From: an uncultured Clostridium sp.
GTDB taxonomy: Bacteria; Bacillota; Clostridia; TANB77; CAG-508
DNA length: 64,000 bases
Reading direction: 5' to 3'
NCBI GenBank assembly: GCA_930982035.1
Contig: CAKNJL010000001.1
Span: 9,796-73,795, forward strand
Numbering within the stretch: position 1 is the stretch's first letter; each line of letters opens with the position of its first letter. Shown piece after piece: positions 985 to 54,090 of this stretch. The notes under the pieces were generated by a model. That model did no database searches. It worked only from the letters and a program-made list of their open reading frames with translations, and was not told the origin of the DNA. Both the position numbers and the translations under genes were made by a program.

Positions 985-2940
985 TTATAATAATTTTTCT
1001 AATTCTTTTATTTTATCCCTTAATTCTGCTGCTTTTTCAAATTCCATATCTCCTGCATATTTTAACATTTCATCAGTTAATTTTGTAATTGTATCTTTTA
1101 TATCTTCTTCTTTTTCTAGTTTATATTCTACTCCTATGTCATCTGTAATTGTAACCTTAATTGAATCACGTACAGATTTTCTAATTGTTTTAGGAGTTAT
1201 ATGATGTTCTTTGTTATATGCTTCTTGTATTCTTCTTCTTCTATTTGTTTCTGATATTGCTTTTTCCATGCTTTCTGTTAATTCATCTGCATACATAATG
1301 ACTGTACCATCTGTATTTCTAGCTGCTCTTCCTATAGTTTGAATTAGAGATCTTTCTGAACGTAAAAATCCTTCTTTGTCTGCATCTAATATTGCTACTA
1401 ATGATACTTCTGGAATATCTAGTCCTTCTCTTAATAAGTTTATACCAACTAAAACGTCAAATTCTCCTAATCGAAGGTTTCTGATAATTTCCATTCTTTC
1501 TAATGTTTTTGTGTCAGAGTGCATATAATTTACTTTTATGTCTAATCCTTTTAGATAATCTGTTAAGTCTTCTGCCATTTTTTTTGTTAAGGTTGTGACT
1601 AAAACTCTTTCATTTTTTTCTGTTCTAATACGAATTTGTTCTAATAAATCATCAATTTGATTTGTTACTGGTTTTACTTCTATTTTAGGGTCTAATAATC
1701 CAGTTGGTCTTATGATTTGTTCTACAATATTTCCATTGCTATGTTCTTTTTCATAATCTCCTGGTGTAGCACTAACAAATACAACTTGATTTAATTTTTT
1801 TTCAAATTCTTCAAATTTTAAAGGTCTATTATCAAATGCTGATGGTAATCTAAAGCCATAATTAACCAATGATTCTTTTCTCGAATGGTCTCCATTATAC
1901 ATGGCTCTTACTTGTGGGATTGTTGCATGTGATTCATCAATTAGTAATAAGAAGTCGTCTGGAAAATAGTCAAATAAGGTATATGGAGGACTTCCTGGTT
2001 TTCTTCCACTTATATGTCTAGAATAGTTTTCTATTCCTGAACAAAATCCTGTTTCTTTCATCATTTCAATGTCAAAGTTTGTTCTTTCTTCTATTCTTTG
2101 TGCTTCTATTAATTTGTTATGTTCTTTAAAGTATTTTATTCTTTCTTCTAATTCTTCTTCAATTGTAACAATGGCTCTTTCCATTTTATTTTTTGTTGTT
2201 ACATAGTGAGAAGCTGGAGATATTAAAACATGTCTTCTACTTCCAATTGTTTTTCCTGTTAGTGGATTGATTTCTACGATTTTTTCAATTTCATCTCCCC
2301 AGAATTCTACTCTAATTGCTGATTCTGATTGGTCAGATGGATATATTTCAACAATATCTCCTTTTGCTCTAAATGTCCCTCTTTTAAAATCAATTTCATT
2401 TCTTGTATATTGCATTGTAACAAGTTTTTTTAATACTTCGTCTCTTCCTTTTTGCATTCCTGGTCTTAATGATAGCATCATTTCTTGATAATCTTCTGGG
2501 TCTCCTAATCCATAGATACATGAAACAGATGCTACAATAATAACATCTCTAGTTTCAAATAGTGCTAATGTTGCAGAATGTCTAAGTTTGTCTATTTCTT
2601 CGTTAACAGATGAATCTTTTTCTATATATGTATCTGATTGTGGAATATAGCTTTCTGGTTGATAATAGTCATAATATGATACAAAATATTCAACATTATT
2701 CTCTGGAAAAAATTCTTTAAATTCACTGTATAATTGTCCTGCTAATGTCTTATTATGTGCTAAAACTAGTGTTGGTCTCTGAACTTGTTGTATTATATTT
2801 GCCATTGTAAATGTTTTACCTGAACCTGTAACTCCTAATAAAGTTTGGAATTTTTTTCCTTCTTTTATTCCATTACTTAAATATTCAATTGCTTTTGGTT
2901 GGTCTCCTGTAGGTTTATAATCTGAATGTAATTTAAACAT
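985..2940 (-). CDS. uvrB: excinuclease ABC subunit B
   Basis: 651 aa. Walker [11 protein letters not shown]. Characteristic [14 protein letters not shown] segment, helicase motifs, and C-terminal UVR domain ([17 protein letters not shown]). Confidence 0.97.
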
Positions 2941-3021
2941 ATTTTTTCCTCATTTCTATTTAAACTAACACATTATTTATACCACATTTCTTCTATAAAG
3001 ACAATATCTTCAATTTCCTAT

Positions 3022-3089
3022 TGTATAAAAAATAAGAACTACTATAATATAAAAATCGTTTAATGACTTTATATTCTAATAGTTCTTAT
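3022..3089 (-). terminator. rho-independent terminator after the surface-protein gene
   Basis: About 22-bp imperfect stem ATAAGAACTACTATAATATAAA / TTTATATTCTAATAGTTCTTAT (3032-3089), followed on the minus strand by TTTTTATA. Confidence 0.6.
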
Positions 3090-3142
3090 AATGTTTATTA
3101 TATTACTGGTTTTAAATCATATAATCTTGTAATAATATATTT

Positions 3143-5972
3143 CTATAATTCTATTATTTTTAAAATAGCTTTTCTTACAATTGATAAATCTATTAAATTA
3201 ACTTCATTATCATAATTTGCATCTGCTGCTTTTTGATATTCTTCTTGTAAGGTAATTATTTTTAAATGATATTTTCTTATCCTAGATAAATCTACAAGAT
3301 TTATATTTCCATCACCATTTGAATCTCCTGTAACAATTAGTGTATATTCTTTATTTGTGTCTGTTATCAATTTATAGCCTGTTCCTATTAAGTCTGAATC
3401 TTGTATTTCTTCTCCAGAACTATTTACAACTTTATATCCTATTTCTGTAGAAATATTATTTTTAAATTCTGACAAATTTGTTTCTGGTATAATTTTACTT
3501 ATATAATTTGGATCTGTATCTATTTGATATTCAGAAGAGGTTATTGTATCATCATCTGGCTCTGGCTCTTCTACTATTTCTGTTATGTTTATTACTTTTA
3601 TTACAGAATTTCCTTTTTCATCTTCTGCATAAATTGTGTATGTTCCATTTGACTTAATACCAACTTCTGCTCTTGCTGAATTGCCCTCTGTTTTTATATT
3701 AAGTGTTGTTCCATTATTTTCAAAATATTCTATATTTTGTTCTCCTGTTGCTATTTTTATTGTTTTAATTGTAGATTGTGTATCTACTACATCTATAGTT
3801 ACTTTTACAGTTTTATCTTCTTCTATAAATTCATTAGTTGTATTCACTGTTGGAGGTGTTGTATCATCTACTTCTGGTTCATCTGTAATTGTTGTAACTT
3901 CAAATGTTTGTATTTTTGAATTACCTGCTGTATCTTTAGCAAATACTGTATATGTTCCATTTTTTGAAATATTTATTGATGTATTAACTGTTTTACTATT
4001 GTTTTCTATATCTAGTTCTTGACCATTGTCTACAAAATAGTCAATATTTTGTTCTCCTTCTGCTATTTTTACCGTATCAATAAATGTTAAAACATCTTCA
4101 ATGTTTATTGAAACAGCTACATTTTTGTTGTCTGTATTTTGTTGACTTATATTAATTTCAGGTGCTGTTTTGTCTATTATAAATTCTACAGTTGATTCAT
4201 TTCCAGCTTCGTCAATTGCTGTTAAAACATATTCTCCTTCGTCTTCTAGCATATCTCCATTTTTGTATGTTTCTATTTTTATTCCATCTTTTGTTAAAGT
4301 TATGCTTTTTAAATTTTCATCACTTATACTTGGTGTTACTGATTGATTATATACTTTGTCATTTTCAACACCACTTATTTCTGGAGGGGTTGTATCTTTA
4401 TCTGGTTCTTCCGGTTCTTCTATACTGGCTATATTAATTTCTTTTACTGCTTCATTTCCTTCTTGGTCTTTTGCATAAACTGTATATATTCCTGTTTCAG
4501 TAATGTTAAAATGAGTATTTACACTACTTCCTACACTTCCTTGCCCAATTCTTGTTCCATTTGTTGCAAAATATTCTACATTTTGACTTCCTTTAGCCCA
4601 TTTAACTTCATCTATATATGAATCTTTATCTATTACCCTTACATCAATTTGTTTTAGATTATCTGCATTTTGTGTTAAAGTAATCTCTGGCGGATCATTT
4701 GGTACTGGTTCAGGCTCTTCTACTCCTATTATTTGTTTACTATACATATATGTATATCCTTGTTCATCTTTTATATATACATTAATTGTACAATTCTCAT
4801 CAACAGTATAATTTGTAGTTACTTCTTTACCTGCATTTATAGAAATTTCTTCTCCATTATTTTCAAAATATGCTAAATCAATATCTTCTCCTATTGCTAT
4901 TTTCATTTCTACAATATTACAGATATTGTTAGTTGCTTTTATTGTTAAATTTCCAGGTGAATTCTCATCTTGAGTAATTTCTACGTTCATGACTTTTTCT
5001 TCTGATGTAATTCTTTTTTCTATCATCTTTCTATTTCCTAGTTCATCTTCTATATAAAATACATATGTATCATCTTCTGGGGCAGTATATGTTATATTTA
5101 CATCTTTTCCTTCTGTAAATTGTAGTTCTTCACCTTTTGTTTCAAAATCACTAAAATCTTCTATTTCAGAACTTTTTGCTACTTTTACTTTAACAATATT
5201 ACAAATTTTATTTGTTATTTGTAAACTTACTTCTCTAGTATTATCCGTATCATTAATTACAGCTGTAATAGGTGTTCTCTCTTTTCCTAAATATATTTGT
5301 GTAATTGTTTTATTTCCTTCACTATCTTCAACATAAATTCTATATAAAGCTTCCTCAGTTGCTCCGTGTATATTTTACAGTTACATCATTACTTTTTATA
5401 AATTCTATATCTGTTCCTTCTACACTGAAATCAATATCATCATTTATATCTTCCATTTTAGCTATTTTTATTTTTTCTATTGTGTTATTTTTACTCGTTG
5501 CGTGAATTGTTACATTCATTAGGTTTTCTTCATCTCTTGTTAGTGTAATCTGTGGCATATCATTTGGATCATTCACAGTTAATCTAGATAAAAATGCATT
5601 ACCTGCTTCATTTTTTGCATAAACTGTGTAGCTTCCATATCCATCTAACTCAAAAGATTCTTGTATAGATTGTGATGGTGTTATTTCAAATGTATAAATA
5701 TCATCATGATTTTCTTCAAAATAATTTGCATTACTTGTCTCTATATATTTGTGTACATATTTTAAGGCAGTTATATTGTATTCACTGTCTGTTGCTGTTA
5801 TATTTATTTGATTTGGATTTGTTTCATCTCTTTTTAGTTCTACATTTAATGTTATATCTCCTTCTGAAACTCCTGAAACATCAGTAGCTTGTGATACAAT
5901 TGGTATTAAAACTTGTATAAGCATTATTAGTATTACAAAAATTGATATATTCTTTTTTATATTATTTTTCAT
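3143..5972 (-). pseudogene. secreted surface protein with about 8 Ig-like repeats and a C-terminal type I dockerin, split by one frameshift
   Basis: ORF 5355..5972 carries a signal peptide (KKNISIFVILIMLIQVLIPIVSQA) and the first repeat. My translation of 5027-5375 in the frame of ORF 3143..5026 is open and continues the same repeat family (recurring G-YTVYA-D--GN blocks). The two frames overlap only around 5357-5376. The C-terminus has two calcium-loop repeats, DSNGDGNINLVDL and DANYDNEVNLIDL, which is a dockerin signature. Confidence 0.7.
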
Positions 5973-6124
5973 GGTTCATTCCTCCCTTACCACTATAAAT
6001 ATATTATAGCATTAAGAAATCTTTTTATCAATATTATTTCTTAAGCCACAAAGAAAACTTAATTTTAAAGCCTTCTTTGTGGTTTTTCAGTTAATGATGA
6101 TTTTTTTCTCCGTCCTCAAAATCA

Positions 6125-7138
6125 TCATTCTCCCATTATTTCTTCTTCTACCTCTTCACTATTTTTGTTGTTTTTATCATGAACCTTTAAGTAATATGGT
6201 TGTATATCTAGCAGACTATCCATATACACAATATTTCCATTTTTATCTGTTATCTTTAAATTAGGAAAAGTTCTTATCATCTTTTTATCTCCCCAGAATT
6301 TGTATATAAAATTTGATAATTTTTCATTTCCATAAATTTCATCATATTGTTCCTGAACTTGTTCTTTATTGGCAACATCTATATCATTTTTGACTATCAT
6401 TCTTACCAAGAAAAATTCTAATGCAAAAGCTGTTGATATACAATCTATCATTAGTAGTATAAATACTGTCATGACAAAGGTTTTTAAACCTTTATATGTT
6501 TTAAATTTGCTTTTTATCCAATCTATTATTTTATCTACTTTAGGATTTAATGACGCAATTAAATATATACCTAAAAATCCCCAAAAGATTGAATAATATA
6601 CACAAATTCTTCCATTTATATTAAGTGGCATTCCTGAATAATCCCACCATCTAACACCTAGTAGTAATTCTCCAACTAAACTTACAACATATTCTACTAC
6701 AGAGCCTACTATAAATCCCCCTATAAAAAGAGCGTTAAATTTTCTAGGAAATTTGTGTAAACATATAATCATTATTACAGCTCCTAATCCATATATTCCA
6801 CAAAATGGCCCATATAAAAAACTTTGTCTACTTTCCCAAACTCCTTTTGTTACAATTCCATAAAGTGTTTCAATTATATATCCTGCTACACTATAAATTA
6901 TAAAATATGCTAAAATTCTCCATAAACTTATTCCATTAATTGTCCTTACTTTATTTTTTTTGATATTTTCATCTTGCATTTTTGTTCCATCTTTTTTTGC
7001 TATATTTTCTTCATTTACTTTTTCATTAATAGTAACATTTTCACTATTTATTTTTTCTTTATTACTATTTTTTTCTACATTCATTTTTTTCGATTTTCCT
7101 ATATTATTTTTTTCTTCTGGATTTCTTTTTTCTTTCAT
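6125..7138 (-). CDS. polytopic membrane protein of the 'putative ABC-transporter type IV' family, with a K/E/N-rich N-terminal extension
   Basis: 337 aa. The conserved core (YSVAGYIIETLYG...SRQSFLYGPFCGIYGLGAV...VVEYVVSLVGELLLGVRWWDYSGMPLNINGRICVYYSIFWG) resembles Pfam ABC_trans_CmpB (PF06541, from memory). Paralogue of ORF 10797..11456. Confidence 0.7.
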   Translation of the reverse strand: MKEKRNPEEKNNIGKSKKMNVEKNSNKEKINSENVTINEKVNEENIAKKDGTKMQDENIKKNKVRTINGISLWRILAYFIIYSVAGYIIETLYGIVTKGVWESRQSFLYGPFCGIYGLGAVIMIICLHKFPRKFNALFIGGFIVGSVVEYVVSLVGELLLGVRWWDYSGMPLNINGRICVYYSIFWGFLGIYLIASLNPKVDKIIDWIKSKFKTYKGLKTFVMTVFILLMIDCISTAFALEFFLVRMIVKNDIDVANKEQVQEQYDEIYGNEKLSNFIYKFWGDKKMIRTFPNLKITDKNGNIVYMDSLLDIQPYYLKVHDKNNKNSEEVEEEIMGE

Positions 7139-7152
7139 ATATTAAACCTTTC

Positions 7153-8928
7153 TTAAATCAATTTTTCTAATTCTTCAATTTTATTTTTATAAAAATCTGT
7201 GGTAGATTTATATGTTGCAGGGTTTTCTAAGTCAACATCTACCATTTTTAATAATTCTACTGATTTTTTAGTACAGCCTTGACTCAACATGTTAATATAT
7301 TTTTCTACAAAACCTTCTTCTTTATTCAATATTTTTGTAGCAATACAAATTGCAGATGATATTCCTGTTGCATATTTATATACATAAAAATCTGTATAAA
7401 AATGTGGTATTCTAGCCCATTCATATTTTATTTCATCATCAATTATTATATCTTTTCCAAAATATTTTTCATTTAATTTGTAATATATATTATTTAAATC
7501 TTCTGATGCTAACATTTCACCTTTTTCAATTTTTTCATGTACTGTCTTTTCAAACTCAGCAAACATGGATTGTCTAAAAAATGTTGCTCTTATCATTTCT
7601 AATAATTCATAAATTAATTCTGCTTTTTTCTTTTTATCAGTTTCATTGTTTATTTGATATTCACTTAGCAAAATTTCATTTACTGTTGACGCAACTTCTG
7701 CTACCATTATTGTATATTGGGAATCTATTATATTTTGAGTTTTACTTGAATAATATGAGTGCATACTATGTCCTAATTCATGAGCAATTGTACTTACATC
7801 TCTTTTATTTTCTGTAAAACTCATTAATACAAATGGATGTACACCATATACTCCAGAACTATATGCCCCTCCTCTTTTATTTGGTTTTTCATATACGTCT
7901 ATCCAATTATTTTCAAAAGCTATATCTAACATTTCACCATATTCTTTTCCTAATATAGCTAATGCATCTTTCACTTCTTTTTTTGCTTCTTCAAAGGATA
8001 TTTTGTCTTCTTTTTGTTCAAATGGATTTACATATAAATCATACATGTGTATTTTATCCATGTTTAATAGTTTTCTTTTTGATGATATAAATTGATGATT
8101 TGTATCTAGTCCTTCTTCTACTCCTTTCATTAATGCTTCATAAACTTTTATTGTTGCATCATCATTGACAGTTGCTTTTTCTAAAGATGATTTATAATTT
8201 CTTAATTTTGCTGTTATTACTGTTTGTTTTACGTTTGCTAAATACATTTCTGTTATAGTATTTATATATTCACTATATTTTTTGTACATTAAGTTAAATG
8301 CTTGTTTTCTAACTTTGATATTATTACTTTTTAAATATTTTGTATAAGTTGCATCTGTTAATTCTACTTCTTCTCCATTCTCATTTATTAATGTTCCAAA
8401 TTTAAATTCTGCATTTGTTAAAATATCATATATATTTTCTGGACCAGAAAATACTTCTGAATAATTTGCAAGTAAGTTTTCTTCTTCTTTGCTTAATATA
8501 TGTTTTTTCTTTTCTAATGTATCTTTAATGTCTCTTTCATATCTTTTTAGTCTTTTATCTTCTTCCAAATATTTATTTATAATTGCTTCATCTGTAAAAG
8601 TTATTTCTGGTGTGATATAAGATGTGGCCGTGCTAAATTCAGATGATAGATTTTCTACTTCTTTAAATAATTTTATTCCTTCTTGATCTGCCATATTTAA
8701 ATGATAAGAAAACATCCCATAAGAATATATTTTATCAAAATCAATTAATATTTTTTCATAAATATTATAGCATTGATATAAATTTTCAGCACTATCACAT
8801 AAAATTCCTTTATATTTTTCAATTTCTTTTAAATCTTTTTGCATTTTCTCTTTTGCCTTATAAAAATCCTCTTTATTCTCAAATAAATCTGTCAAATTCC
8901 AATTATACTTTTTTTGTATTTGATTCAA
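7153..8928 (-). CDS. pepF: oligoendopeptidase F (M3B metallopeptidase)
   Basis: 591 aa. Zinc motif HELGHSMH. Overall PepF-like length and C-terminal helical domain. Confidence 0.92.
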   Translation of the reverse strand: MNQIQKKYNWNLTDLFENKEDFYKAKEKMQKDLKEIEKYKGILCDSAENLYQCYNIYEKILIDFDKIYSYGMFSYHLNMADQEGIKLFKEVENLSSEFSTATSYITPEITFTDEAIINKYLEEDKRLKRYERDIKDTLEKKKHILSKEEENLLANYSEVFSGPENIYDILTNAEFKFGTLINENGEEVELTDATYTKYLKSNNIKVRKQAFNLMYKKYSEYINTITEMYLANVKQTVITAKLRNYKSSLEKATVNDDATIKVYEALMKGVEEGLDTNHQFISSKRKLLNMDKIHMYDLYVNPFEQKEDKISFEEAKKEVKDALAILGKEYGEMLDIAFENNWIDVYEKPNKRGGAYSSGVYGVHPFVLMSFTENKRDVSTIAHELGHSMHSYYSSKTQNIIDSQYTIMVAEVASTVNEILLSEYQINNETDKKKKAELIYELLEMIRATFFRQSMFAEFEKTVHEKIEKGEMLASEDLNNIYYKLNEKYFGKDIIIDDEIKYEWARIPHFYTDFYVYKYATGISSAICIATKILNKEEGFVEKYINMLSQGCTKKSVELLKMVDVDLENPATYKSTTDFYKNKIEELEKLI

Positions 8929-9044
8929 TCTTATCGTCCTCCTTTTTTATGCCATTCTATCATATTTTAATTTCAGATACAATACTTTATATAATTAGTA
9001 TATATTATTTAAAACAGATTATACTAATATTCCTTTTATTTAAA

Positions 9045-9350
9045 TTAATATATTGGAATTTTTATTTGCATCCCTTCTGATAAGTCACTTGTGTCCATAT
9101 TATTTAGTTCTTTTATTTCTAAAATTACATTTCTTACATCTTGATTTTGAAAATATTGATTTTCTTTTATTTCTTCTTGTGCTATTTGCCATAAAGTCTC
9201 TCCTTTAGTTACATATTCTGTTTTATATTTTCCTTCGTTATTTGAATATGTTTTATTACTTAATAACCATATCATTATTAATATAAACAAAATCAAATTA
9301 ACTATTGACTTTACAAATTTATTTTTATTTACAATTTTTATTTTTCTCAT
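9045..9350 (-). CDS. small TM + LysM protein, YneA-like candidate SOS cell-division inhibitor
   Basis: 101 aa. N-terminal TM (IVNLILFILIMIWLL), then a LysM-like segment (YVTKGETLWQIAQEE...LSEGMQIKIP). Same size and architecture as B. subtilis YneA. The promoter carries LexA-box-like sites. Confidence 0.6.
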   Translation of the reverse strand: MRKIKIVNKNKFVKSIVNLILFILIMIWLLSNKTYSNNEGKYKTEYVTKGETLWQIAQEEIKENQYFQNQDVRNVILEIKELNNMDTSDLSEGMQIKIPIY

Positions 9351-9372
9351 AATAAATCACTCCTCTTTCCTT

Positions 9373-9424
9373 GAATGTTTGTTCGGTATGTCTGCATTAT
9401 ATACGAACATTTTTTCTTTGTCAA
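9373..9424 (-). promoter_or_regulatory. consensus sigma-A promoter overlapped by two LexA-box-like sites
   Basis: Minus strand reads TTGACA (9419-9424), a 17-nt spacer, then TATAAT (9396-9401). GAAAAAATGTTCG (9404-9416) lies in the spacer and CGAACAAACATTC (9373-9385) lies between the -10 and the RBS. Each is one mismatch from GAAC-N4-GTTC. Confidence 0.6.
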
Positions 9425-9463
9425 TAGTTTTTCCAAAAAAATGTTTGTTTATAAAAACAAAAA

Positions 9464-9709
9464 GGTTACAATTCACAGCTTAAAGATACTATTAATAAGA
9501 ATGTATATATATTAATATTGAATAAATTTTGAATGTGATTGGAGTGCTTGTAGAGTTTCTTAATCTAAAAGGAATGAGGAAGCGCGATACAGCGAGAGGC
9601 TCGTTCCTTTTAGATTTAGAAACTCTAATGCACGTATTGAACCGAGAAATTTATGAAATATTAATATATATACATTCTATAAAATAATTATAAGGCTGTG
9701 AATTGTAAC
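9464..9709 (+). ncRNA. hairpin element family 1, copy 1 (candidate structured RNA or ERIC/MITE-like palindromic repeat)
   Basis: 246-bp imperfect palindrome centred on 9586-9590. Outer stem GGTTACAATTCACAGC / GCTGTGAATTGTAAC. AT-rich stem AGAATGTATATATATTAATATT with its complement. Asymmetric internal bubble. 27-bp inner helix. GC-rich apex GAGGAAGCGCGATACAGCGAGAGGCTC (9576-9602; 17/27 G+C). The wobble pairs are U:G only when read on the plus strand. Confidence 0.5.
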
Positions 9710-9720
9710 ACAAGAAGTAT

Positions 9721-9756
9721 AAATAGAAACAACCCAAAGTCTTATTCGACTTTGGG
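9721..9756 (-). terminator. rho-independent terminator after dpaB
   Basis: Stem CCCAAAGTC (9733-9741) / GACTTTGGG (9748-9756), followed on the minus strand by TTGTTTCTATTT. Confidence 0.65.
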
Positions 9757-9769
9757 CTAATTAAATTAC

Positions 9770-10348
9770 TTATAATAATATTGGACTTATTTGTTCTCCT
9801 TCTAAAGCATATTCTATTGTTTTTATAATATATTCTGCATCAAATACTATAGACCTTGGTTTTGTTATTGGATTATCTTGTTTAAAAGGTACAAAATAAT
9901 AATTTTTTCTATTTAATAATTTTCCTATATTTTCAGCATTACCACTTAATCCATTATTAGTTGAAGGTGCTATTACCAATGGATTGTTATTTCTTAAATG
10001 TGATTTTGCTGACATAGTAGCTGGAGTATCTATAATGTCACAAGCCAATTTTGCCATAGTATTTCCAGAACATGGTGCAATTACCATAATATCTGTCATT
10101 TTCTTTGGTCCAATTGGCTCTGCGTCTTGAATAGTATGAATAATTTTTTTACCTGTCATTTCTTCTATTTCATCTATAAAATCTTTTGCTTTGCCAAATT
10201 TTGTATCTAAGTTGTAACTATTGAATGACATTATTGGTATAATTTCTGCACCTTTTTTTATAAGTTCTTTCATTTTTGGTAAAACCTTGCTAAATGTACA
10301 AAATGAGCCTGTTAATATGAAACCTATTCTCTTCCCTGTTACTTCCAA
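9770..10348 (-). CDS. dpaB: dipicolinate synthase subunit B (flavoprotein)
   Basis: 192 aa, collinear with B. subtilis SpoVFB as I recall it: GKRIGFILTGSFCT, DFIDEIEEMTGK, AEPIGPKK, VIAPCSGNTMAKLA, NNPLVIAPSTNNGLS, YFVPFKQDNP. Confidence 0.85.
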   Translation of the reverse strand: MEVTGKRIGFILTGSFCTFSKVLPKMKELIKKGAEIIPIMSFNSYNLDTKFGKAKDFIDEIEEMTGKKIIHTIQDAEPIGPKKMTDIMVIAPCSGNTMAKLACDIIDTPATMSAKSHLRNNNPLVIAPSTNNGLSGNAENIGKLLNRKNYYFVPFKQDNPITKPRSIVFDAEYIIKTIEYALEGEQISPILL

Positions 10349-10510
10349 AAAAATCCCTCCTTCTTATATAATCTTTTATATAATATGATTTTATGTAAAT
10401 AATGGTTGTTATTTTTTAATAAATCTATTTTCTTATTTAATAACCAAATAATATATTTTTAACCACTATATAAAATTTGTATAAGAATATTTACCTCACA
10501 GTTTCATTAA

Positions 10511-10773
10511 ATTAAGACTGTGTAAAACTTAAGGTCATTGGGGGCAATATATAATATAAAATCATTCACAATTTTGTATAAGCTAAATTTTCAAAGAAAT
10601 TCTAAAATAACAAGATGTGCTCTTGCACTCAGACCCTCTCTTTCAGAGAGTACCGTGCATATCCCACATCTTGTTGTTTAAGAATTTCTAATTCAAATTT
10701 AGATACGCAAAATCGTTCATTCTTTTATATTATATATTGCCCCCAATGGCCTTAAGTTTTACATAGTCTTAAT
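10511..10773 (+). repeat. hairpin element family 2, copy A
   Basis: 263-bp imperfect palindrome with its apex loop at 10641-10644. GC-rich centre GTGCTCTTGCACTCAGACCCTCTCTTTCAGAGAGTACCGTGCATATCCCAC (27/51 G+C). 190 bp (10549-10738) match the reverse complement of copy B with 5 mismatches. Confidence 0.75.
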
Positions 10774-10796
10774 TTCTAAATATTTCAAAAATAGTT

Positions 10797-11456
10797 TTAG
10801 TTTGTTTGTACTACTTCAATCTTATTTTCATAAATATCGTCCATTACTTCATCAGAGTAATATTTGTCAAAAAATACATCTATATTATTTGATGCTCCAA
10901 TTTCACGATTTCTCTCGTTTTGTCTAATCGCTGCCATTGATGATACAGATATATTAAACAACATAAAAATTATGAATAGTGCTGTAATAGTTCTAAAGTA
11001 AGCATCTTTTGTAATTTTATCTATCTTATTTATTAATGGTAATATATATTTCATAAATAAAACTCCCCCTATTCCCCAATATGTACAATGCAATAGACTT
11101 GTCCTTCCATTTATATTAAACAATAAGTGAGAATAATCCCATGATATTGTTCCAAATAATATTTCTTGGAAATATGAACATAGATATTCTACTATTCCTC
11201 CCAAAATCATGGTAACAAAAAATATTTTCAAATATCCCCCTTTTATTTTTGGAACTATAAAATAATATGCTAATATTCCCAATCCATATACTTGTGCAAA
11301 AGGTCCAAATACCAATCCTTGTCTAGATACAAAATGACCATTTTGAACAAGTCCTACTACCATTTCTACTGCATATCCAATAACACTTCCTATAATAAAT
11401 ACCCAAAATATTTTTATTATTTTATCGATATATTTTTCTTGTTTCATAAACTCCAC
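10797..11456 (-). CDS. polytopic membrane protein, 'putative ABC-transporter type IV' family (short paralogue)
   Basis: 219 aa. Same conserved blocks as ORF 6125..7138 (GYAVEMVVGLV...SRQGLVFGPFAQVYGLG...GGIVEYLCSYFQEILFGTISWDYSHLLFNINGRTSLLHCTYWG). Confidence 0.7.
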   Translation of the reverse strand: MEFMKQEKYIDKIIKIFWVFIIGSVIGYAVEMVVGLVQNGHFVSRQGLVFGPFAQVYGLGILAYYFIVPKIKGGYLKIFFVTMILGGIVEYLCSYFQEILFGTISWDYSHLLFNINGRTSLLHCTYWGIGGVLFMKYILPLINKIDKITKDAYFRTITALFIIFMLFNISVSSMAAIRQNERNREIGASNNIDVFFDKYYSDEVMDDIYENKIEVVQTN

Positions 11457-11606: not shown

Positions 11607-11880
11607 CATTAAGTTAAAGATTAGTAAAAGATGATGCTAGACGGGAAATATATAATATAAAAGAATGAACGATTTTGCGTATCTAAATTTGAATTAGAAA
11701 TTCTTAAAGAACAAAATGTGGGATATGCACGGTACTCTCTGAAAGAGAGGGTCTGAGTGCAAGAGCACACTTTGTTCTTTTAGAATTTCTTTGAAAATTT
11801 AGCTTATACAAAATTGTGAATGATTTTATATTATATGTTTCCCCTCTAATATTATCTTTTACTAATCCTTAACTTAAATG
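11607..11880 (-). repeat. hairpin element family 2, copy B (inverted relative to copy A)
   Basis: 274-bp imperfect palindrome with its apex at 11741-11744. The core is the reverse complement of copy A. The outer stem (CATTAAGTTAAAGATTAGTAAAAGATGATGCTAGAC...) differs in sequence from that of copy A but still pairs with its own partner arm. Confidence 0.75.
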
Positions 11881-19422: not shown

Positions 19423-19535
19423 AATTTTTCCTCCTTTAATTATTATAAAATATTTTTACTAATTACATTCCAAATCTATTATATATTTTAATATTGTGAT
19501 TAAATTTCGAATGTGATTTGAGTTTTTATAGAGTC

Positions 19536-20824: not shown

Positions 20825-20946
20825 TATCGCCTCCTTTGATTTTTTATTACATATATTATATATCACTTAGAGTTAACTTCAAGTCAATACCTTTTTTATA
20901 TTTTATTTAAAAACAATATAATTTTTCTTACAATTCATAGCTGATT

Positions 20947-21180
20947 CCTGAAAAATTCTAAAACTAATAATATATATGAAAGCCAAAAGTTATATTATAA
21001 TATTTTTTATTTATTTGTGTGACGTGGAATATATGTACGCCTTCTTAGCTTTAAATAAATGAGGAAGCGCGATACAGCGAGAGGCTCGTTTGTTTAAAGT
21101 TTAGAAGGCGTCATTTATGGAGCTAGCCAAATAAATAAAAAATATTATAATATAACTTTTGGCCCAGTAAATTTTCAGGT
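20947..21180 (+). ncRNA. hairpin element family 1, copy 2
   Basis: Contains the same 32-nt core, ATGAGGAAGCGCGATACAGCGAGAGGCTCGTT (about 21058-21089), as copy 1. The 27-bp inner helix has a different sequence but the same pairing. There is a perfect 36-bp AT-rich stem (20982-21017 / 21128-21163) and an outer pairing CCTGAAAAATT / AATTTTCAGG. Confidence 0.5.
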
Positions 21181-21226
21181 TATGAATAATGTATACATAC
21201 ATTCTATACTATTATTACTTAATTAG

Positions 21227-46918: not shown

Positions 46919-47229
46919 TATCGTATACCTCCTTTGTATAAATAACATCATTCATATTTTATCATGTTTACATAATTATTTTCAATATGTTATATCATTT
47001 TTTCTGTTGTCAAATTATTCCTTTTCATTATTTAAGAGAACAATAGCGGACTTTCTTAAGTATTTTCTCTGTTTATAACATTTTAAAGTCTACCTCCTTG
47101 TTCGTACGCCAATTTTACTTTAATAAAACTGTGTGCAACCATTAGAGAGAAGCGACGTTCTTGTATAGAAAAAAGCTATTGAAATAAAATCAACCGCTTT
47201 TTAATCCTTTATATTAATTTTTTTATTTA

Positions 47230-53896: not shown

Positions 53897-54090
53897 ATAA
53901 GTCAAAATCTTTGATTTTTTTGACCTATGGATTTTTTATAGAACGATTTTTCCAATTTTTTCGTTTTGTGAAATTTTATAGCACGGATTTTTCCATTTTT
54001 TCGTTCTATAAAAATTTATAGCACGGATTTTTTCAATTTTCCGTGCTATAAATTTTTTTAAAACGATTTTTTAATATTTTCCGTTTTATA
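53897..54090. repeat. five tandem roughly 40-bp palindromic units immediately after fic
   Basis: Units at 53897-53928, 53937-53970, 53977-54010, 54017-54050 and 54057-54090. The best unit is TATAGCACGG-attttttcaatttt-CCGTGCTATA. The stems differ between units (GTCAAA/TTTGAC, GAACGA/TCGTT, AAACG/CGTTT) while the loop stays A/T-rich and similar. Confidence 0.8.

Follow-up and report, generated by a model that had tools for sequence, protein, structure and literature searches.

Several families of short, hairpin-forming repeats are generally known in bacteria, and among the closest described systems are the Correia elements of Neisseria and the RUP elements of Streptococcus pneumoniae, which are small (100-250 bp) and non-coding, have inverted ends and a target duplication of fixed length, occur in many intergenic copies, can fold as a whole into a hairpin and may carry promoter-like hexamers at their ends. 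An element with these features (copy A, 245 bp, 9465-9709) lies in a stretch of 64,000 nucleotides from an uncultured Clostridium sp. (GenBank assembly GCA_930982035.1, contig CAKNJL010000001.1), hereafter called the window. It is probably a non-autonomous transposable element, namely a palindromic or foldback-type miniature inverted-repeat transposable element (MITE), and the palindromic MITE family that it represents is real and was previously undescribed. In contrast to the Correia and RUP elements, which duplicate TA and show no sequence similarity to it, the element has an 8-bp duplication, a multi-tier hairpin interior, exchangeable apices and a conserved asymmetric loop, and its parent insertion sequence was not found.

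Other known repeats are similar in part. Like the ERIC or IRU repeats of enterobacteria, the element is an intergenic imperfect palindrome that is more conserved than expected under neutrality and has variants with internal insertions; unlike them, it has clear inverted ends and 8-bp duplications, whereas ERIC is about 127 bp long, usually lies inside transcripts, belongs to a different host clade and has no sequence relation to it. The REPIN and REP doublets mobilised by RAYT are likewise repeated hairpin-forming doublets with stems that stay complementary. REPINs, however, have no target duplication, are conserved at the base of the hairpin and depend on a single-strand HUH transposase; since 8-bp duplications are present here, we did not assign the element to this group, a RAYT gene having been looked for only among ten neighbouring proteins. 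Palindromic elements derived from IS200/IS605 have neither inverted ends nor a duplication and insert 3' of a fixed tetranucleotide, and this assignment was rejected because of the inverted ends and duplications. Eukaryotic foldback elements, too, consist almost entirely of one long inverted repeat that encloses a short unique centre, show concerted evolution of their arms and promote inversions and deletions, but they are much longer and have arms made of tandem subrepeats, and no descent is implied.

The ends of copy A are the 15-bp repeat GTTACAATTCACAGC at 9465-9479 (plus strand) and its inverted copy at 9695-9709 (minus strand), which match at 15/15 positions. They are bounded by the target-site duplications ACAAAAAG at 9457-9464 and ACAAGAAG at 9710-9717, which agree at 7/8 positions. 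The block TTACAATTCAYAGC, in which the first-pass annotation of the window had seen a promoter, is instead part of this terminal inverted repeat and recurs in inverted form at 9695-9709; a version common to both window copies, TTACAATTCAYAGCT, is found at 9466-9480 and 20928-20942. Ends of the copy A type also bound the copies at loci L002, L006, L010, L012 and L017, and related ends were observed in L001b (GTTATTGTTCAGACC / GGTCTGAATACTAAC) and L013b (GTTCAATTCATAAT). Five independent insertions have perfect 8-bp duplications of the flank: L002 (TAAAATTT), L006 (TTTCTATG), L010 (CCAAATAC), L001b (AGAAAAAA) and L017, which is the copy A locus of a sister strain (CTTTTTGT / CTTTTTGT). From these duplications a DDE-type enzyme can be argued, and the 245-bp element would be inserted in trans by an 8-bp staggered cut. 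The 15-bp inverted ends, with the consensus GTTAnnnTTCA..., would be recognised by a transposase whose gene lies elsewhere.

Copies were collected with an exact 25-mer of the apex, which was found at 15 loci in 8 metagenome-assembled genomes (MAGs) of uncultured Clostridia / Bacillota. The MAG BRZ_EH__bin43 alone holds 8 of the 15, and seven of these eight belong to the copy A sequence type; the inner 173 nt of the three complete ones that were compared (L002, L006, L010) show 97-98% identity to copy A. Seven copies of one sequence type in a single MAG mark recent transposition. A looser core pattern gave one additional locus among metagenome contigs and no match in viral contigs, and BLASTN searches of plasmids and phages with the module, with the whole element or with the empty shell returned AT-rich noise only. 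As far as seen, the superfamily to which the element belongs is confined to a few uncultured gut Clostridia of about 25% G+C.

Absence in a relative and decay were observed as well. The L009 genome is syntenic with window positions 3156-10288 at 70-85% identity and has no copy A. Decayed half-copies are present in the window at 19470-19535 and in L012 at 4961-5027; the former is the remnant of the left arm of a third copy (plus strand, 81% identity to bases 41-105 of copy A, window 9504-9568) without apex and without right arm. No conserved coding capacity was found. The only open reading frame (ORF) of copy A, of 52 aa, stops after 12 codons in copy B, and a protein search with it, which was also meant to find more copies, gave no homologue. 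Taken together, the inverted ends, the 8-bp duplications, the many copies at unrelated loci, the absence in a relative and the decayed fragments fit a MITE, and the element is most likely a transposon without a transposase rather than a new RNA gene.

Several observations weigh against this interpretation. Searches of the window, of 16 loci and of plasmid and phage collections revealed neither an autonomous element nor a transposase with these ends, and no repeated transposase emerged from an all-against-all BLASTP of the ORFs of the loci and the window; of the two features that would make an ordinary MITE of the element according to the first-pass annotation, the target-site duplications are thus present and the cognate transposase is missing from these sequences. 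The flank duplication is not recognisable at the complete copies L012 and L015, nor at copy B. There is no clean empty site, as the L009 junction lacks the adjacent terminator along with copy A. Finally, the interior contains two loop blocks that are identical between copy A-type copies and L001b though every surrounding helix differs, and a conserved helix imperfection; neither would be expected in the interior of a neutral MITE. Literature searches with the end sequences returned chance matches in unrelated papers only, and a MITE keyword search returned nothing relevant.

Both window copies contain the same 32-nt GC-rich apex core, ATGAGGAAGCGCGATACAGCGAGAGGCTCGTT, on the plus strand at 9574-9605 and 21059-21090, as had been noticed at first reading. 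No further match occurs in the window when up to three mismatches are allowed, and none was obtained in 100 shuffles (0 expected by chance). The window itself has 22-31% G+C, in agreement with the low genome G+C first noted. For each region a single long hairpin of about 250 nt is predicted, with -110.6 kcal/mol for copy A and -101.8 kcal/mol for copy B and z-scores against shuffled controls of -14.6 and -13.2, respectively. Copy B (20927-21193, plus strand) is an older, diverged member, with the left end CTTACAATTCATAGC and a degenerate right end GGTTATGAATAATGTA, both read by eye, and with a stem that is complementary at 36/36 positions. Copies A and B are each placed between a terminator and the next promoter.

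From the ends inward, copy A consists of a left subterminal segment (9480-9500, plus strand), which lacks complementarity to the segment opposite it (9674-9694), and an AT-rich stem of 32 nt that is 94% complementary (left arm 9498-9529, right arm 9647-9678, both given on the plus strand) and whose two helices co-vary. Then follow the left side of an internal loop, GAATGTGATTGGAG, with a short GTGC helix (9531-9551, plus strand), which is identical in L001b and mostly kept in L009b, and the right side of the loop (9627-9654, plus strand) with GTATTGAACCGAGAAATTTAT, which reads GAGCCGAG in other copies. The tip is formed by a 27-bp helix (5' arm 9552-9578, 3' arm 9600-9626, plus strand) and by the apex core. 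Re-deriving the pairing of this helix by hand, with the arms of copy B at 21037-21063 and 21085-21111, we recovered the ten differing pairs that had been reported between the copies: eight are double changes from one Watson-Crick pair to another and two are G:T or T:G in copy B. A T:T mismatch at pair 10 is shared by the two window copies, as claimed, yet it is not universal, other lineages having A:C, or T:T plus A:A, at or next to this pair.

Co-variation was assessed in 13 distinct copies with a consensus structure of 62 pairs, using 500 shuffles and slid alignments as controls. Paired cells amount to 97.3%, compared to 34-51% in the slid controls, and the observed pairing values were reached by none of the 500 shuffles. 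Changes on both sides occur in 33 of the 62 pairs (11 of the 26 counted pairs of the 27-bp helix), and variation on one side only in two, so that the additional copies bear out the co-variation first suspected from two. Pairing this far beyond both controls indicates that the hairpin is maintained. Nearly all of the co-variation is of the Watson-Crick type: G:U cells that are not fixed number 9, fewer than the 22 other mismatches, and stems of 32-36 bp are 94-100% complementary. This is the pattern of duplex DNA. Complementarity of the arms is probably maintained by a process that acts on DNA, either template switching across the hairpin in replication or conversion from arm to arm, and the same kind of process would yield interior inversions and slippage deletions; if so, the compensatory changes need not reflect selection on RNA. 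Long palindromic repeats may therefore show textbook compensatory variation without being RNA genes, and inverted ends and flank duplications are worth checking before such repeats are called structured RNAs. Growth of the palindrome by inverted duplication of unrelated flanks was also considered and rejected for the AT-rich stems, which align between lineages.

Two alleles of the copy A locus from other strains, L026 (1972-2221) and L028 (833-1082), have lost 169 nt comprising the whole inner hairpin with the core, and retain the inverted ends. The loss runs between two direct TATTAATA 8-mers and is a slippage-type palindrome deletion. Since such a deletion fits these alleles better, we rejected the reading of the inner hairpin as a separate insertion with TATTAATA as its own 8-bp duplication; the 8-mer is self-complementary, and the termini that such an insertion would have do not form inverted repeats.

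At least three independent inversions of the interior have taken place. L009 and L016 are one locus, with flanks about 90% identical, in which the central stretch of about 125 nt has opposite orientations. In copy A, the 21-nt subterminal segments match those of the bin43 copies only when swapped (20/21 positions, versus 12-13/21 on the same side), which indicates that the interior of copy A is inverted relative to its outer shell. L005 / L011 and L008 / L014 represent one locus in four species, and here the whole nested hairpin of about 450 nt is inverted between the pairs. The orientation of the core relative to the GC skew of the flanks is 11:7 and thus unbiased. All of the roughly ten strain contigs of the copy A locus have the same orientation, from which we conclude that inversion is a rare rearrangement rather than phase variation. 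A function that depends on one strand with respect to host genes, replication or the promoter-like site of the shell is not conserved.

Once the search bias is allowed for, the internal loop is, by sequence comparison, the best conserved part of the family, and not the apex, as had been assumed at the outset. The identity of the apex among the collected copies is largely a search artefact, because these copies were gathered with the apex 25-mer. When 191 kb of sequence was scanned with a covariance model built from the 127-nt module, two copies without the 25-mer were detected, L001b and L009b, and both carry other apices. In L001b, the loop blocks CGAATGTGATTGGAG and CGTATTGAGCCGAG are exact, while all helices around them are changed with compensation, and its apex, as read by eye, is that of a second hairpin family (family 2; the family of copy A is family 1); L009b has a different small GC-rich hairpin in this place. 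At the L005 / L008 / L011 / L014 locus, conversely, a family-1 module stands in place of the small terminal hairpin of a family-2 element. The end type shared by the families, seen in the family-2 copy L013b, and the swapped apices indicate that the two families form a single superfamily in which the tips can be exchanged. All lineages retain the asymmetric loop CGAATGTGATTGGAG / CGTATTGAGCCGAG and, midway along the 27-bp helix, an imperfection. As a simple correction of the palindrome would erase both, we infer that selection acts on a folded or sequence-specific form of the loop and the imperfection. Most likely, the loop CGAATGTGATTGGAG opposite CGTATTGAGCCGAG and the imperfection would serve as a recognition site for a protein that acts on the element.

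Carried further, this suggests that the loop and the imperfect helix might be a strand-specific recognition module that works in folded single-strand DNA or in RNA, sits on a MITE shell with an exchangeable apex and is copied around the chromosome. We regard this as unlikely. The module could be a mirrored relative of the RSB region, to which RNA polymerase binds in the single-strand origins of plasmids, or it could be the binding site of a hairpin-specific protein that drives the element to spread or to nest within other hairpins. Two non-complementary loop blocks that are exactly conserved in a fast-evolving hairpin could lead to an undescribed interaction between a protein and a hairpin.

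A structured non-coding RNA gene, in which the plus strand of the core would be transcribed into a rod-like RNA 250-350 nt long whose internal loop and apex are functional and the MITE shell would be only its vehicle, appears rather improbable. The strong co-variation and the conservation of the unpaired blocks and of the helix imperfection would suit such a gene. So would the folding energies, which under RNA parameters favour the core strand over its complement in 13 of 13 copies, and the wobble pairs, with 8 G:U sites versus 2 A:C sites in the defined helices. When the apex was replaced and segments were folded separately, however, the strand asymmetry proved to be confined to the conserved loop segment, the variable helices being symmetric, and under DNA parameters the difference between the strands is about zero. 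An asymmetry that is present only in the conserved loop and apex, which are shared by descent, counts as one evolutionary event. The early observation that wobbles are exclusively of the G:U type on the plus strand applies to the two changed pairs of the 27-bp helix but not to the whole hairpin, over which G:T and A:C oppositions are about equal in number. The perfect stems of 30-36 bp, in which one-sided G:U changes are nearly absent, look like duplex DNA. A further point in favour of an RNA gene is a promoter-like TTCACA-17-TAGAAT, a consensus match only (10/12 positions), which points inward from the right end of copy A (9674-9702, minus strand); in the bin43 copies, this half is located across the core and the site faces the core strand. 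Through the three inversions, however, the core has come to lie on either strand with respect to the promoter of the shell and to the neighbouring genes, and these inversions and the unbiased orientation together argue against a fixed plus-strand RNA. That the folded strand is antisense to all its neighbours, which had been taken as a clue, is uninformative in a window where 55 of 56 ORFs are on the minus strand. The apex is exchangeable, and no Rfam family matched at gathering score anywhere in the window, as the first-pass annotation had expected; at a relaxed E-value only sub-threshold matches were obtained, nearly all to models of miRNA precursors, which we treated as chance matches to a long hairpin. 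An assignment to 6S RNA was rejected on the same lack of an Rfam match and on the multi-copy nature of the element.

A functional single-stranded DNA structure, of which the folded strand is recognised by a protein of the host or the element, is very unlikely. Possible variants are RNA polymerase priming the complementary strand, as at plasmid single-strand origins, or a hairpin-binding nuclease or transposase. The resemblance concerns the ssoA-type (palA) origins, which are also long imperfect hairpins of a Firmicute (PMC4598088; PMC5703833) and in which the RSB is TTATGCCGAGAAAATTT and the CS-6 motif is TAGCGT (PMC4598088). The right-hand loop block GAGCCGAGAAATTT has a 9-mer in common with this RSB. 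As in the palA of pT181 and pE194, a GCCGAGAAA block adjoins a TTGG / CCGA pairing, the CAGCGA of the apex agrees with CS-6, TAGCG(T/A), at 5/6 positions, and the strictly Watson-Crick pairing suits DNA. The likeness to ssoA had been remarked upon before, and the CCGAGAAA block and the CAGCGA are indeed present, but they are wrongly arranged: in the pT181 and pE194 sequences the RSB is on the 5' arm, with TAGCGA downstream of it, whereas here the CS-6-like motif comes first and the RSB-like block follows it, on the 3' arm. Copy A itself has ACCGAG in the GAGCCGAGAAATTT block, type B is without the block, and the apex with CAGCGA is dispensable. The covariance model of the element recognises neither origin, giving 16.5 bits (E ~1) for the pE194 ssoA and nothing for pT181. 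Single-strand origins are orientation-specific (PMC4595007), unlike this chromosomal, multi-copy element without orientation bias, and flank duplications of 8 bp speak for transposition by a double-strand cut-or-copy mechanism. Neither the arrangement of the motifs nor orientation and a setting of single-stranded replication agrees with membership in the ssoA-type origins, and only the resemblance stands.

A programmed invertible switch (inverton), with the arms as inverted repeats for a site-specific invertase, would explain the three interior inversions with break points in the arms but is extremely improbable and was rejected, given that about ten strains of the copy A locus show a single orientation, as expected of rare, evolutionary inversion, that the inverted segment is GC-rich and has no promoter-like content, that no recombinase was found among the ten neighbouring proteins scanned and no repeated ORF in the loci or the window, and that replication-based inversion between close inverted repeats accounts for such inversions.

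Returning to the MITE family, its effect on the surrounding chromosome is visible at a neighbouring gene. Two family-2 hairpins of the same superfamily flank the gene for a CmpB-like protein (PF06541, ORF 10797-11456), one at 10509-10775 on the plus strand, with a weak covariance-model match at 10569-10713, and one at 11609-11877 on the minus strand, inverted relative to the first. In strains L022-L024, the CmpB-like gene is gone and one hybrid hairpin is found, whose left and right outer arms derive from different copies, which indicates a deletion of the gene by recombination between the two family-2 elements. With this gene loss, the deletions and the local inversions, the family visibly drives rearrangement.

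The copy A locus, which was recovered from many metagenome assemblies by means of the neighbouring proteins, lies among ordinary chromosomal genes encoding LysM, flavoprotein, CmpB-like, cation efflux, MerR and PBP proteins. Copy A is bracketed by the promoter of the LysM gene, a perfect TTGACA-17-TATAAT at 9396-9424 (minus strand), and by the intrinsic terminator of the flavoprotein gene at 9730-9759 (minus strand), so that the insertion is within the sole stretch between two transcription units. The ORFs counted above on the minus strand (55 of 56) are those of at least 90 aa, and the GC skew is negative throughout; the window is on one replichore, with strongly co-oriented genes.

Further arrangements were observed at the ends of individual copies. 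The complete family-1 copy in L012 (6073-6358) has an inverted 21-nt flank pair, CTTCAATTCATGACAAATCAAT / ATTGATTTGTCACGAATTGAAG, and no direct duplication. The flank resembles the inverted end of the element, as though a minimal relative enclosed the copy, and for this copy an inverted duplication of the flanks is possible. A 47-nt mini-element with similar ends adjoins the copy in L002.

Other repeats occur nearby. A third repeat family, present at 47030-47200 of the window, L005 3290-3460, L001 7023-7173 and L004 75-247, consists of three hairpins, of which the middle one, G[AG]CGC[GC]AAAWTT..loop..AATTT.TGTGCA, co-varies, and has no inverted ends. It has been inserted twice at the imperfect spot of the family-1 27-bp helix (L001 and L004), and in the window it lies just upstream of the gene for a 1301-aa protein of the NPCBM / F5_F8 type C kind. 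In L008 (approximately 2790-3330), as well as in L005, L011 and L014, the nested hairpin spans about 500 nt in three tiers, and its outermost palindrome holds AAAAAAGGGAATTTGGGGACGGAC. Similar GGGACGG motifs adjoin the L003 copy and suggest yet another repeat family. An imperfect palindrome at 53961-54066 of the window, with 52-nt arms that are 71% complementary, has repeated TTTATAGCACGGA units and is unrelated to family 1.

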